Program-made: the position numbers and the translations under genes
Shown: positions 54,262-64,000 of the stretch, one piece after another
Position numbering within the stretch: position 1 is the stretch's first letter
Layout: each line of letters opens with the position of its first letter
Notes under the pieces: generated by a model
What the model was told of the DNA's origin: nothing
Databases searched by the model: none
The model's input: the letters and a program-made list of their open reading frames with translations, nothing else
Assembly (NCBI GenBank): GCA_037481695.1
Contig: JBBFLE010000002.1
Coordinates: 16,661-80,660, forward strand
Length of the DNA stretch: 64,000 bases
Reading direction: 5' to 3'
DNA from: a bacterium
Lineage (GTDB): Bacteria > Desulfobacterota > Desulfocorpusculales > Desulfocorpusculum

Positions 54262-54840
54262 TTATCTCAGCCCATCCTCCTTCTTGGCCTCTTCCTTTTT
54301 CAATCCGCCGATCCTCGGGTGCGGCCGGCCTGAGTCAGTGACCACCAGGGCCACCACTATCTCATCCTCCCTGGGCGCATCGTACACCCTCACGGGCATA
54401 GCGTCGAAATGTGAGCGCACAAAGGCTGCATCCTTGAAGTGCACCGGTACGTCTATCTCCGTGCCAGGCACACCGAACTTCTTGGCCGAGGGGATGATGG
54501 CCTTGCCTCCTCCCACGGCTGCCCTGAAGGGCGTGCCCAGTTTGGGATGAAGGATGGCCGCAGCATGCTCTAGCTCCCCCTTGCTGCCCACGATGGCGGC
54601 TTTTCCGTAGCTTTCTACTCTTTCAGGAGGCACCCCCAGGGCTTCCACCGCCTTCCTGCCCAGGAGTTCCCCAAGCTCCTCGCCTGCCTCCATGAGCTCT
54701 GTAAGATCCTCCACAAACTTCCCTGAAAAAGGATTTCTGATCACGGCTATGGCCGCAGCCCTCTTGACCGGAGGATTTACTGTGGCGCCTCCCTCTTCCC
54801 GAATCTCTTCCAACAGGGTGACTATTTTCCTTATGTCCAT
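54262..54840 (-). CDS. 'amino acid synthesis' family protein (PF06684-like), function unknown
   Basis: Start at the ATG at 54840 (MDIRKIVTLLEE), preceded by GGAGGAGGTAAAGGAG. Conserved-looking blocks AAIAVIRNPFSG, YGKAAIVGSKGELEHAAAILHP, AIIPSAKKFG, VRSHFDAM. Family recalled from memory. Confidence 0.55.
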   Translation of the reverse strand: MDIRKIVTLLEEIREEGGATVNPPVKRAAAIAVIRNPFSGKFVEDLTELMEAGEELGELLGRKAVEALGVPPERVESYGKAAIVGSKGELEHAAAILHPKLGTPFRAAVGGGKAIIPSAKKFGVPGTEIDVPVHFKDAAFVRSHFDAMPVRVYDAPREDEIVVALVVTDSGRPHPRIGGLKKEEAKKEDGLR

Positions 54841-54859
54841 CTCCTTTACCTCCTCCATC

Positions 54860-55711
54860 TCATGCTTGTTCCAGCAATTTTCCAAGCCCCACAGAACCCC
54901 AAAGGGATCCAACGCACAAGAAGGCTCCCTTTATCACCCCCTTGGCCCTCAAGCTCTCGGCCCTGGCAAGTCCCTGCTCTAGCCCCTTTGAGGCCACCTC
55001 CCTGGGCAGCTCCCCAACCCTGAGGGTCACCTCAAGCCCTGCTATGTCTGAATCAGGATCCAGTTGCTCGGCTCTTACCCTTTCCACCTGCTGGCAGGGC
55101 ACCCACGTGGCATTGGCCACGGCAGTAGCTGCCGCATCGGCTACAGAAGCTCTCTGGGCAAGTACTGTGGCCGACCAGGCTATACCCCGGGTCAGGCTCC
55201 TGCCTCCAAGACCGCTTGTGGCCACCCCCCAAGAGGGACTTGACCCCTCAAGCCTCAGGCGATGGGTGAGTCTGCCCTTTTCCACTCTGGGACGAATGCC
55301 CACCGCCACAGTCTCCCCCTGGGTAAGTCTCAAGGCTACATCTCCTCCGTTTTCCACGATCACCCTTGTCATTCCCCGCCCAGCCAGAAGGTCTGCAACA
55401 CTGTCTGCTATGGTGCCTGCCACAGATGCCATGGGTGTCAGGTCCGGATCCCCTACCATGGCAACACTCTCCCACATGGCCCTCCCCAGGTACTGCAGCC
55501 TCTCTTTGCACACAGAGCCCCATGGATCTTTGAGCAGGTAGCGGTCGGCTGACACCTGCTCCAAGAAGCCAATGGACTCTCCTGCTGCCCTGATAGCCTC
55601 TTGGGGCTGGGCAAGCCTGCCCACCCAGGCCCAAATCCTGAGCCGCATGGGGCCACACTCGGCCAAGACCGAGCCATCCCCCAATAAGGTGCTGATCTGC
55701 TCATAGCCCAT
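54860..55711 (-). CDS. ApbE-like / UPF0280-family protein (possible flavin transferase-like)
   Basis: 283 aa containing GMTRVIVENGGDV and a GVATSGLGGRS motif resembling the ApbE-superfamily ATSG box. Assignment tentative. Confidence 0.5.
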   Translation of the reverse strand: MGYEQISTLLGDGSVLAECGPMRLRIWAWVGRLAQPQEAIRAAGESIGFLEQVSADRYLLKDPWGSVCKERLQYLGRAMWESVAMVGDPDLTPMASVAGTIADSVADLLAGRGMTRVIVENGGDVALRLTQGETVAVGIRPRVEKGRLTHRLRLEGSSPSWGVATSGLGGRSLTRGIAWSATVLAQRASVADAAATAVANATWVPCQQVERVRAEQLDPDSDIAGLEVTLRVGELPREVASKGLEQGLARAESLRAKGVIKGAFLCVGSLWGSVGLGKLLEQA

Positions 55712-55825
55712 TTGGTTGCAGAAGAAATCTTTCCTGGGAGTCCTTCCCAGCTTGCTTTTTTTAGTTCTCAGGTGCTTTATAGCCTGGAGCTGTTTCCCAG
55801 GAGCTTACCACTCTGTGCTTGAAGT

Positions 55826-61666: not shown

Positions 61667-62178
61667 GGATCTTCTCCCGGACAAGCCCTCTTGGCAGCAG
61701 CTTCCACGGCAGCCAGGATCTGCTCGTATCCTGTGCATCGGCACAAGTTGCCTTCCAGGGCCTTTAGGATCTCCTGCCTTGTGGGCCTTGGATTTCTCAT
61801 GAGAAGGGCGTAAGCGCTCATGAGCATGCCTGGGGTACAGAAGCCGCACTGGACAGCATGGTGCTCCAAAAAGGCCTCCTGCAGGGGATGAAGCCCCACA
61901 GGGCTCTCCAGTCCCTCCACTGTCAGTAATTCCCTACCCTCCAACTGGGCCGCCATCATGAGACAGGCGTTTATTGCCTTGTTGTCCACCACCACCGTGC
62001 AGGCCCCGCATTCTCCCATGGCGCACCCCTCCTTGGCGCCCTTGAGACCCAGTCTTTCTCTAAGAACATGCAGAACACTCTCTCCAGGGTCCACCTCCAG
62101 GGCTACCTCCCGGCCGTTCAGCTTGAAATGCACAGTTATGGATGGCCTGCAACTGCTATCTTCAAACCCCATGTTCAC
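61663..62178 (-). CDS. molybdenum hydroxylase (2Fe-2S)-binding small subunit (CoxS/XdhA-like)
   Basis: 171 aa with both [2Fe-2S] motifs (CAMGECGACTV, CGFCTPG...CRCTGY). ATGA overlap with the upstream PncA-like gene. Confidence 0.9.
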   Translation of the reverse strand: MNMGFEDSSCRPSITVHFKLNGREVALEVDPGESVLHVLRERLGLKGAKEGCAMGECGACTVVVDNKAINACLMMAAQLEGRELLTVEGLESPVGLHPLQEAFLEHHAVQCGFCTPGMLMSAYALLMRNPRPTRQEILKALEGNLCRCTGYEQILAAVEAAAKRACPGEDP

Positions 62179-62930
62179 ATCCTCTTCAATGCTTCCATAT
62201 CCAGAGACTTGAGCACCGTGATGCCTTTGGCCTTCATTTCTTCCAGGGCTCGTGATGTGGTCTCAGGGGCCACTCCCCTGCAAAGCTCTTCCACAACGGT
62301 TACCTTGAAGCCTGCTGCCACCGCATCCAGGGCCGTGGCCTTAACACAGTAGTCGGTGGCGATCCCATAGATGATAAGCCTTTCTATGCCCCTGGCCTTC
62401 AAGATTCGCTCCATCTCGGTCTTGGCCCCACCGTCATCCTGGAAGCCTGAGTAGCTGTCAAAATTCTTGTCTTGACCCTTCTTCACTATGGCCAGAAACA
62501 GATCATTGTCCACCAGGACCTTGGCTCCCTCTGTGCCCTGAACACAGTGAGGGGGCCAAAGCACCTGATCTTTGCTCCCCACCTTGATGACATCAAAGGC
62601 CTTCTTGCCTGGGTGGTTTGTGAAGAATGAGACATGATCCGAGGGGTGCCAGTCCTGTGTGGCGTAAAGGGTGAAACCTGCCTTGCCCAAAGCGCTGGTG
62701 GCCTTTCGGACCTTTTCCACAAAGGCCTTGTCTGTGCCGGGCACGGCCAAAGTACCCTTCTTCCACTGGGTAAAGTCCCCTTGAACATCCACCACTATGA
62801 CCCCTACCTTGGAGTGCGCCTGGGCTGCCTTGCTGGCCCCAGCTTTGGGAGCCTGGGCCATGGCCGGCAAGACAAGCAAACAGACTATCAGGAACAAACC
62901 CACCATGGAGAAACCCATCACGTGTTTCAT
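62175..62930 (-). CDS. isochorismatase-family cysteine hydrolase, nicotinamidase/pyrazinamidase (PncA)-like, with N-terminal signal peptide
   Basis: 251 aa with signal peptide (MKHVMGFSMVGLFLIVCLLVLPAMAQA), then PncA-like motifs (VIVVDVQGDF, QDWHPSDHVSF, IATDYCVKATALDA). Confidence 0.75.
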   Translation of the reverse strand: MKHVMGFSMVGLFLIVCLLVLPAMAQAPKAGASKAAQAHSKVGVIVVDVQGDFTQWKKGTLAVPGTDKAFVEKVRKATSALGKAGFTLYATQDWHPSDHVSFFTNHPGKKAFDVIKVGSKDQVLWPPHCVQGTEGAKVLVDNDLFLAIVKKGQDKNFDSYSGFQDDGGAKTEMERILKARGIERLIIYGIATDYCVKATALDAVAAGFKVTVVEELCRGVAPETTSRALEEMKAKGITVLKSLDMEALKRM

Positions 62931-63071
62931 GGCCGCCCTCCTTTGGGAAAATTGGGAACAGGATTTACTTATCCTTTCCCGTCATGTGCGGAGTTAGTCC
63001 CCAACAGGAACCATCGTTGGTTCAAAGCTGATTCTTTGCCCGACACTGGTCATGGCCTTGATTTTCCTCTC

Positions 63072-64000
63072 TCACTTTCTCCCTTGCTCCCCAGTGGTGA
63101 CCCCCTGGTATTTCATGGCAAAGCCATCATCCAGAGAGCCTGCCTGCCCACCTATGGAGGAATGCCATCTGCTTATGATCACTTTCTTGTCAGTATAGAA
63201 ATCTATGGCCTCGTTGGCCCTTCCTCTGATGTCTCCGAACATGGATATTTTTCTTCCTCCCACAGGGAAGTACGCGATGGGAGCAGGTGTCCCTATGTTT
63301 ATCCCTACTTGGCCCACATTGACCCTCAGGGCGAACTCCCTGGCCCAGCCTCCGTTTTCCGTATAAATATTGGCTGTGTGGCCAAAGGGACTTCGGTTTA
63401 TAATCTCCACACCCTCGGCCAGGTCCTTCACCTTTTTCAGGCAACGCACGGGCCCGAAGATTTCCTCCTGGAAGACCCTCATCTCAGGCTCCGCCTCCAT
63501 CACGGTGGGACCCAGGAAATAACCATTGGGATAGCCCGCCACCTGGGGATTCCGGCCATCCAAGAGAAGCTTGGCCCCTTCCTGGAGAGCCCTTTCTATC
63601 TCCTGGTGCATTGAATTCAGTGCCTCCCTGGAGATCACTGGTCCAAGGCTCACATTAGGATCCATGCCATATCCCATAACCAGCTTCTTGCATTCCTCCA
63701 AGAAGCGCTCCTTTACCTCCTCGTAGACCTCCTCCACAGCCAGTACATTGGAGACCGCAAAACAGCGCTCCCCCACGTGGCCAAAGCAGGATGCCACCAC
63801 ATTGGGGATCACCTCCTTTAGGAAAGCATCCCTGGCTATGAGCACATGATTCTTGGCTCCGCCCTGGCACTGAGCTCTTTTGCCGTGAAGTATGGCCATC
63901 TTGTACACCTCTTCCCCCACCTTGGAGGAGCCCACGAAGGTCACACCCACGGTGCCAGGGTGCACCACAAGAGCATTTCCCACTCCCCTTCCAGAGCCCG
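63072..64000 (-). CDS. aldehyde dehydrogenase, methylmalonate-semialdehyde dehydrogenase-like (CoA-acylating type), partial; N-terminus beyond window end
   Basis: C-terminal ~300 aa of an ALDH with glutamate/cysteine catalytic regions (CQGGAKNHVLI, FGHVGERCFAVSNV). The reading frame continues to the window edge. Confidence 0.85.
   Translation of the reverse strand, partial: GSGRGVGNALVVHPGTVGVTFVGSSKVGEEVYKMAILHGKRAQCQGGAKNHVLIARDAFLKEVIPNVVASCFGHVGERCFAVSNVLAVEEVYEEVKERFLEECKKLVMGYGMDPNVSLGPVISREALNSMHQEIERALQEGAKLLLDGRNPQVAGYPNGYFLGPTVMEAEPEMRVFQEEIFGPVRCLKKVKDLAEGVEIINRSPFGHTANIYTENGGWAREFALRVNVGQVGINIGTPAPIAYFPVGGRKISMFGDIRGRANEAIDFYTDKKVIISRWHSSIGGQAGSLDDGFAMKYQGVTTGEQGRK

Follow-up and report, generated by a model that had tools for sequence, protein, structure and literature searches.

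A predicted nicotinamide and nicotinate degradation cluster in an uncultured member of the Desulfobacterota, with a candidate glutaryl-CoA-forming aldehyde dehydrogenase

Nicotinate-oxidising sulfate reducers have been known since the description of Desulfococcus niacini in 1983. A literature search found no description of nicotinate (nic) genes in sulfate reducers, as a first-pass annotation of the DNA studied here had supposed, and a 2023 review of nicotinate dehydrogenases includes none from this group. We analysed a stretch of 64,000 nucleotides, hereafter the window, from a Desulfocorpusculum genome of the Desulfobacterota (GenBank assembly GCA_037481695.1, contig JBBFLE010000002.1, positions 16,661 to 80,660), one end of which carries what is predicted to be a complete gene set for nicotinate degradation. 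Its predicted genes for hydroxylation, reduction and ring opening resemble those of Eubacterium barkeri; in place of the reductive, B12-dependent branch that follows in that organism, the cluster has an aldehyde dehydrogenase (ALDH) of the (methyl)malonate semialdehyde dehydrogenase (MSDH) type, which we propose as the enzyme joining ring opening to glutaryl-CoA metabolism.

Layout of the cluster

From position 53763 to the end of the window run ten co-directional minus-strand open reading frames (ORFs) with overlapping or short junctions (Table 1); the largest gap between nic cluster genes is 141 nt and the other junctions are shorter or overlapping, which is consistent with a single operon. 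The first-pass annotation had described a co-directional set comprising a nicotinamidase, a three-subunit molybdenum hydroxylase, an enamidase, a 4Fe-4S protein, and ApbE-like and PF06684-like proteins, with an ALDH immediately upstream. All are present, in one direction and intact (the ALDH being complete on identical contigs), and the identities given to the genes stood; the ORF coordinates did not, several starts having been overstated. The start of the PF06684 gene was set at 54840 from the ribosome-binding site GGAGGAGG, and an AAGGAGG ribosome-binding site lies upstream of the nicotinamidase (PncA-like) gene. Four nucleotides past the PF06684 gene, in the same direction, begins a DinB-superfamily gene that has no homologue in the 80 related loci introduced below and is therefore probably a lineage-specific passenger outside the pathway.

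The window is matched at 100% identity by two public contigs, along 3.8 and 8.2 kb, respectively, and one of the two runs 6.9 kb beyond position 64000. It bears out the expectation that the operon continues past the window: 5' of the dehydrogenase lie genes for a GntR/FCD regulator and a DctP-DctQ-DctM TRAP transporter, and the called genes of the extension, annotated with Pfam, comprise only this transporter, the regulator and unrelated genes. The identical contigs also place the start of the dehydrogenase at the window-equivalent position 64625, giving a full length of 517 aa, of which the window holds residues about 209-517 (some 309 C-terminal residues). The cluster proteins have been deposited as MEJ5375549-555 from a metagenome-assembled genome (MAG), the ALDH being MEJ5375555.1, and the closest relatives of the cluster genes are in Thermodesulfobacteriota MAGs. 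From its gene content, the region in the window is probably the distal part of a nicotinamide/nicotinate catabolic operon of an uncultured anaerobe. Scans of the operon and upstream extension for sigma-70 promoters and intrinsic terminators returned counts equal to the shuffled expectation and were hence uninformative; three intergenic regions yielded no inverted repeats that might serve as GntR operators, and scanning the window and extension against Rfam brought up neither a riboswitch nor any other RNA element within the cluster.

To place the cluster among its relatives, a survey of one genome per GTDB species was used, in which relatives of Hnr, the 6-hydroxynicotinate reductase, occurred in 283 genomes; the best 80 of the 283 loci, 41 of them at least 15 kb long, were searched by tblastn with the window proteins (counts in Table 1). 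Almost all of these 80 closest loci are from Desulfobacterota, including the cultured strain NaphS2, Desulfospira joergensenii DSM 10085 and Desulforhopalus singaporensis together with many MAGs of Desulfomonile, Desulfobacterales and Syntrophaceae. Families recurring as neighbours across the 80 are transporters and regulators. The gene order of strain NaphS2 is that of the window: DctPQM, ALDH, PncA, NdhS, NdhF, NdhLM, Ena, Hnr, ApbE-like, PF06684.

Table 1. Genes of the cluster in the window and its extension, and how many of the 80 related loci hold a homologue.
Gene or product	Position in the window	Length (aa)	Strand	Domain or match	Loci with homologue (of 80)
TRAP transporter genes	beyond window end				21-25
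GntR/FCD regulator	beyond window end				15
Aldehyde dehydrogenase, MSDH-type	63072 to 64000, cut by window end		minus	Pfam Aldedh	36
PncA-like	62175-62930	251	minus	Isochorismatase (Pfam)	16
NdhS-like [2Fe-2S] small subunit	61663-62172	169	minus	Fer2 and Fer2_2
NdhF-like FAD subunit	60806-61666	286	minus	FAD_binding_5 and CO_deh_flav_C
Molybdopterin subunit, fused NdhL and NdhM	58483-60804	773	minus		55
Enamidase (Ena; tetrahydro-6-oxonicotinate amidohydrolase)	57366-58529	about 385-387	minus	2VUN	69
Hnr, 6-hydroxynicotinate reductase	55826-57328	500	minus	N-terminal 2x[4Fe-4S] ferredoxin domain
UPF0280/ApbE-like	54860-55711	283	minus	weak ApbE (Pfam) and NF003322	73
PF06684 (DUF1185, 'amino acid synthesis')	54262-54840	about 192	minus	PF06684, E 7e-75	62
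DinB-superfamily; operon 3' end	53763-54257	164	minus	DinB_2 (Pfam)

Enzymes of the upper pathway

Nicotinate fermentation in E. barkeri is reportedly encoded by a cluster, described by Alhapel et al. in 2006, that comprises ndhFSLM, hnr, ena, hgd, hmd, mgm, mii, dmdAB and dml. Since there is no solved structure of Hnr, the comparison was made through the contig of an enamidase close to that of E. barkeri (PDB 2VUN): a sequence search with the 2VUN enamidase, rebuilt from an alignment, located a locus (L003, here the E. barkeri-type cluster) with an Ena at 97% identity to 2VUN, and identities were taken from pairwise BLASTP of the window proteins against it. It holds genes for a LysR regulator, Hnr, an ApbE-like protein, Hgd, NdhF, NdhS, NdhL, NdhM, a transporter, Ena and a PF06684 protein, followed by MgmL, Mii, a MutL-like reactivase, Dml, Hmd and DmdAB. 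Common to both clusters are Ndh, Hnr, Ena and the ApbE-like and PF06684 proteins, at full-length identities of 32-62%. They differ in gene order and in the molybdenum (Mo) subunit, fused in the window and split into L and M in the other; the window and its extension further have the MSDH-type ALDH, an apparently exported PncA, and TRAP and GntR genes, whereas the E. barkeri-type cluster has the LysR regulator and a PTS-EIIC-like transporter.

The fused Mo subunit is one unsplit ORF spanning the NdhL and NdhM regions (median length in the related loci, 759 aa). Its residues 8-411 match 3HRD_A (NdhL) at 396 bits and residues 433-751 match 3HRD_B (NdhM) at 269 bits, with 47.5% and 44.5% identity, respectively, to the E. 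barkeri-type NdhL and NdhM. The summed score of 665 bits compares with 405 for 4-hydroxybenzoyl-CoA reductase (HBCR) and about 262 for xanthine dehydrogenase (XDH) and CO dehydrogenase (CODH). The FAD subunit finds its top PDB match in 3HRD_C, the nicotinate dehydrogenase FAD subunit (32% identity to E. barkeri-type NdhF), and the 2Fe-2S subunit matches 3HRD_D at E 1e-43 (48% identity to E. barkeri-type NdhS). These matches uphold the earlier reading of the three subunits as a nicotinate dehydrogenase-like enzyme, and the Mo subunit, when checked against XDH and CODH, stood apart from both with its highest summed score to 3HRD. Its NCBIfam scores are all under the respective cut-offs (pucD 598 against 784, HBCR 570 against 995, XdhA 566 against 780, and CODH models 264-323 bits against 950-991). 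With equivalog scores below cut-off and the 3HRD sum higher, a purine-hydroxylating, XDH, CODH or HBCR identity was rejected.

The amidohydrolase, previously called enamidase-like, aligns along its whole length with the E. barkeri enamidase 2VUN at E 4e-147, with the runner-up PDB match at E 3e-7, and is not near guanine deaminase or allantoinase. It is 59% identical to the E. barkeri-type Ena, and the alignment to 2VUN keeps the HxH, MHTGG, SHINGG and GNDAPSG motifs. The 4Fe-4S protein that had been put forward as a candidate Hnr proved to be 47.7% identical to the E. barkeri-type Hnr over 495 of 500 aa (E 9e-142). Besides the N-terminal 2x[4Fe-4S] domain it has a further 4-Cys motif; three 4-Cys groups are invariant. 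No Pfam model matches its large catalytic region, for which a structure model gave no solved relative.

Two small proteins accompany Hnr, and the suggestion that they belong with the pathway is supported by the presence of both in the E. barkeri-type cluster. The ApbE-like protein, encoded directly downstream of Hnr and a conserved partner, is 40% identical to the product of the gene adjoining Hnr in the E. barkeri-type cluster; its Pfam match to ApbE is partial and below threshold (24.3 bits against a cut-off of 25.6), its best relative is UPF0280 (PDB 2O34), and proteobacterial plasmid clusters carry a relative annotated as 'UPF0280 family protein'. It may possibly serve in maturation of an Hnr cofactor. 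Flavinylation of Hnr by this protein at a GCGSAT motif, set against the flavinylation consensus [S/T]GA[S/T], was considered and is no more than a weak idea, given the sub-threshold ApbE match and the variable last residue: the motif is conserved as GCGSA[T/S/A], ending in Ala in the Comamonadaceae homologue and in Ser in that of Pleomorphomonas. The PF06684 protein matches PDB 2QTP at E 3e-74 and is 62% identical to its E. barkeri-type homologue; from this conservation it is a core member of the Hnr module. The family's label, 'amino acid synthesis', is a structural-genomics inference from neighbouring genes of a branched-chain amino acid-type ABC transporter (PMC2954203; PDB 2QTP/3BYQ), and is probably a misnomer, because PF06684 accompanies Hnr and UPF0280 in every cluster examined. 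PF06684/DUF1185 and UPF0280, for both of which structures have been solved, are now firmly tied to Hnr.

Lower branch and uptake

The lower part of the E. barkeri pathway has no counterpart here. A tblastn search of the 64 kb window with all proteins of the E. barkeri-type cluster matched the seven upper-module genes only and found no homologue of Hgd, Hmd, MgmL, Mii, the MutL-like reactivase, Dml or DmdAB, in agreement with the absence of Hgd, Hmd and mutase genes noted earlier; the lower pathway is likewise missing from the 6.9 kb extension, judged by the Pfam families of its called genes, and Pfam annotation of the remaining window revealed nothing pathway-related. Together with the MSDH-type ALDH next to the cluster, this lends support to the oxidative variant that the first-pass annotation had suspected.

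That annotation had recognised the neighbouring dehydrogenase as CoA-acylating, and its full-length sequence on the identical contig L001 reaches 470.7 bits against the TIGR01722 MMSDH cut-off of 448.5. The ten solved structures closest to it are MSDHs without exception, and it is about 40% identical to the CoA-acylating MSDH of Bacillus subtilis (1T90), a member of the ALDH6 family. When aligned to 1T90 and 9Q0D it keeps the equivalents of Asn153 (FNFP), Arg107 (GELTR) and Arg283-Cys284 (GERC), and in the 1T90 alignment has Gln at the position of the catalytic Glu of ordinary ALDHs. An oxyanion Asn, a carboxylate-binding Arg pair, the catalytic Cys and the missing Glu characterise the CoA-dependent, beta-decarboxylating enzymes of ALDH6, as set out in a 2025 review (PMC12041015). 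To judge from these residues and scores, the protein is a bona fide MSDH-type CoA-acylating enzyme. Since 2-formylglutarate, the product of ring opening, is malonate semialdehyde substituted at C2 with carboxyethyl, it would be turned into glutaryl-CoA, CO2 and NADH by the canonical ALDH6 reaction; compared with B. subtilis IolA/MmsA (1T90), the proposed substrate would bear carboxyethyl in place of H or CH3.

Homologous ALDHs are closely bound to the cluster elsewhere. Of the 41 loci spanning 15 kb or more, 30 have one. In the whole set there are 36, each co-directional with its closest core gene, and 28 of them lie within 400 bp of such a gene. The immediate neighbour of the ALDH differs among genomes, being NdhS, PncA, Ena, PF06684 or the ApbE-like gene, and a linkage that persists through such positional shuffling speaks well for functional coupling. 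The Arg, Arg-Cys and no-Glu pattern holds throughout the 30 full-length linked ALDHs, and all 30 share 19 signature columns in which they differ from 1T90 and 9Q0D, among them an invariant Arg469 as well as His416 and Lys305; MMSDH is the best NCBIfam model for every linked ALDH. Genomic context and signature residues suggest a 2-substituted substrate, 2-formylglutarate, other than (methyl)malonate semialdehyde.

The B12-dependent branch (MgmL, Mii, MutL-like reactivase and Dml) is found in two large loci only, both without the ALDH, so that the two lower branches look like alternatives. As read from gene content, both exist within the Desulfobacterota. The two loci, in Desulforhopalus singaporensis DSM 12130 (L036) and a Desulfobulbaceae MAG (L043), have the same core genes and a TRAP transporter.

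The PncA-like protein had been described as bearing a signal peptide, and by inspection it has a hydrophobic N-terminal leader ending AMA/QA. It scores 170.9 bits with the NCBIfam nicotinamidase/pyrazinamidase model NF008623, just below the cut-off of 174, and its best PDB matches are the nicotinamidases of Acinetobacter baumannii (2WT9) and Pyrococcus horikoshii (1ILW). It shares with them the Asp-Lys-Cys triad and the DxH...H metal-binding motifs and differs in its apparent export leader and its location in a catabolic operon. Leaders occur in 13 of 15 cluster-linked PncA homologues, some of them lipoprotein-like, and the DctP protein carries a twin-arginine (TAT) signal. TRAP solute-binding proteins typically recognise carboxylates, and deamidation of nicotinamide outside the cytoplasm followed by uptake of nicotinate through the TRAP transporter would therefore make a coherent model.

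Proposed pathway, alternatives and the remaining window

Taken together, the genes point to the following route as the probable one. Exported PncA would deamidate nicotinamide outside the cytoplasm and DctPQM would import the nicotinate, presumably under control of the adjacent GntR/FCD regulator; family membership, leader peptides and linkage make these two steps probable. The Mo hydroxylase (NdhS, NdhF and fused NdhLM) would convert nicotinate to 6-hydroxynicotinate, Hnr, accompanied by the UPF0280/ApbE-like and PF06684 proteins, would reduce this to 1,4,5,6-tetrahydro-6-oxonicotinate (THON), and the enamidase would open the THON ring to (S)-2-formylglutarate and NH3, three steps that orthology to characterised E. 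barkeri enzymes renders very likely. Taking the place of the reductive B12-dependent branch of E. barkeri, the MSDH-type ALDH would then oxidise, beta-decarboxylate and CoA-acylate 2-formylglutarate, using CoA and NAD+ and giving glutaryl-CoA, CO2 and NADH; family chemistry and conserved linkage tilt the balance, by a little, towards this assignment. Glutaryl-CoA would pass via crotonyl-CoA to acetyl-CoA by the usual route, encoded elsewhere. A wider proposal seems to us evenly poised between right and wrong: that the ALDH is an MSDH-family enzyme recruited as a 2-formylglutarate dehydrogenase, constituting a third lower branch from THON that keeps the thioester; that with exported nicotinamidase and TRAP uptake it makes up the standard vitamin B3 route of many Desulfobacterota, sulfate reducers and syntrophs alike, in anoxic sediments; and that UPF0280 and PF06684 are obligatory partners or maturation factors of Hnr.

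Papers citing the original work describe the THON route for E. barkeri and Azorhizobium (PMC9304392), and Azorhizobium is known physiologically to proceed from 2-formylglutarate via glutarate and glutaryl-CoA (Shettigar 2012, PMC3511419; PMC9304392), so that what would be unprecedented in the variant proposed here is the gene assignment and the host group, not the chemistry. The 'hybrid' pathway of Azorhizobium and Bradyrhizobiaceae has the same first three steps and then a non-B12 route to the level of glutarate/glutaryl-CoA; its reported chemistry passes through free glutarate followed by CoA transfer, whereas the window would form the thioester directly. Four alpha- and betaproteobacterial clusters were also compared, from a Sagittula stellata plasmid (L084), a Comamonadaceae bacterium (L085), Pleomorphomonas (L086) and Neorhizobium (L087). 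Unlike that of the window, their Hnr has no 2x[4Fe-4S] domain at its N-terminus. A gene for a ferredoxin-NADP reductase lies close to it, as its direct neighbour in L084 and L085, and is absent from the L086 stretch. The clusters also contain UPF0280, PF06684 in one or two copies and an ABC transporter of the Liv type, and three of the four have, in place of the enamidase, a hydantoinase/oxoprolinase A/B pair, which suggests an ATP-dependent alternative for ring opening.

Several observations weigh against the glutaryl-CoA assignment and the route built on it. The ALDH is missing from 11 of the 41 large loci, of which two have the B12 branch and nine have neither, and in the four proteobacterial plasmid clusters no MSDH-type ALDH lies within 12 kb, so it is not a universal partner. 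The linked ALDHs form two deep clades with 35-40% identity between them, the larger of which scores 375.6 against the TIGR01722 cut-off of 448.5, and the 19 signature columns were set against two canonical MSDH sequences only. Neither the 64 kb window nor the extension, nor the flanking 10 kb of the related loci, yielded a glutaryl-CoA dehydrogenase or glutaconyl-CoA decarboxylase, and the PncA signal peptide was judged by eye only. The free glutarate reported for Azorhizobium would also differ from direct formation of glutaryl-CoA. Three Desulfomonile MAG loci (L041, L045 and L053) have the full core cluster and neither ALDH nor B12 branch within 10 kb; in their place are a conserved upstream block of four genes (about 180, 310, 276 and 459 aa) and, downstream, a gene for a large TPR protein.

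With the same upper pathway, 2-formylglutarate might instead lose CO2 first, spontaneously or through another enzyme, leaving the ALDH to convert glutarate semialdehyde to glutaryl-CoA or glutarate, or the ALDH might handle malonate or methylmalonate semialdehyde of an unrelated route and be merely co-located. Azorhizobium, in work of Kitts from 1992, is said to decarboxylate first and then to oxidise to free glutarate, which would speak for such a course. PMC3511419 confirms 'via glutarate' alone; ALDH6 enzymes also take non-carboxylated aldehydes such as propionaldehyde (PMC12041015), and the nine large loci devoid of both branches fit here as well. We nonetheless consider it unlikely, since both carboxylate-binding Arg residues are kept in all 30 full-length linked ALDHs, the linkage to the core is tight and survives shuffling, the mutual exclusion of ALDH and B12 branch argues for replacement of the first step of the lower pathway, and the 19 signature positions, which are independent of lineage, would be unexpected in a housekeeping MmsA.

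A substrate other than nicotinate, be it another pyridine carboxylate, 6-chloronicotinate or a purine- or pyrimidine-like N-heterocycle degraded by paralogous enzymes, is improbable to a further degree. Identity to the E. barkeri-type enzymes does not exceed 62% and falls to 32%, the Mo subunit also scores well with HBCR and XDH models, and overall similarity does not reveal the substrate of an XDH-family enzyme. Against this, all seven core genes occur together as in the E. barkeri-type cluster, no other substrate is known for the enamidase and Hnr families (JGI and PGAP name the proteins accordingly), the operon holds a putative nicotinamidase with intact catalytic motifs, the XDH, CODH and HBCR equivalog models stay below cut-off, and the amidohydrolase is distant from guanine deaminase and allantoinase. 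It is very improbable indeed that PncA and the transporter serve NAD salvage while the remaining operon detoxifies or trims an excess without supporting growth: PncA is classically a salvage enzyme, but this one appears exported, unlike a cytoplasmic salvage protein, its gene is translationally packed with six catabolic genes, and pncB, nadD and nadE were not found in the Pfam-annotated window and extension.

As for novelty, the upper pathway predicted here is a known system in a new host group, and the proposed lower step, exported nicotinamidase and TRAP uptake would be new variations. A literature search whose text stopped short of Alhapel 2006 and Kitts 1992 found no paper tying an MSDH-type enzyme to nicotinate degradation, and none assigning a gene to the link from 2-formylglutarate to glutaryl-CoA in the non-B12 route; the predicted assignment of glutaryl-CoA formation to the ALDH would accordingly be new. 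With Hnr relatives in 283 genomes, each from a different GTDB species, the cluster type is widespread, and bacteria of anoxic sediments and groundwater may commonly be able to turn over vitamin B3.

Elsewhere in the window, a co-directional plus-strand block at 43687-51662 encodes an FdhA-like formate dehydrogenase, a 1044-aa NuoF-GltD-type fusion flavoprotein and a MetV/MetF methylene-tetrahydrofolate reductase, typical of Wood-Ljungdahl-type C1 metabolism in anaerobes; it is followed by two response-regulator/histidine-kinase genes that converge on the nic operon. The minus strand at 37341-37822 carries a bacterial small signal recognition particle (SRP) RNA and two tRNA genes, and a 265-aa plus-strand ORF at 37537-38334 is probably spurious because it overlaps them. 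On the minus strand at 31022-34353, a 739-aa ORF without a Pfam match adjoins a Ser/Thr protein kinase gene, and at 23540-24361, also on the minus strand, a caspase-domain (Peptidase_C14) protein is encoded beside polysaccharide-export genes (YjbH, Wza-like and Wzz).

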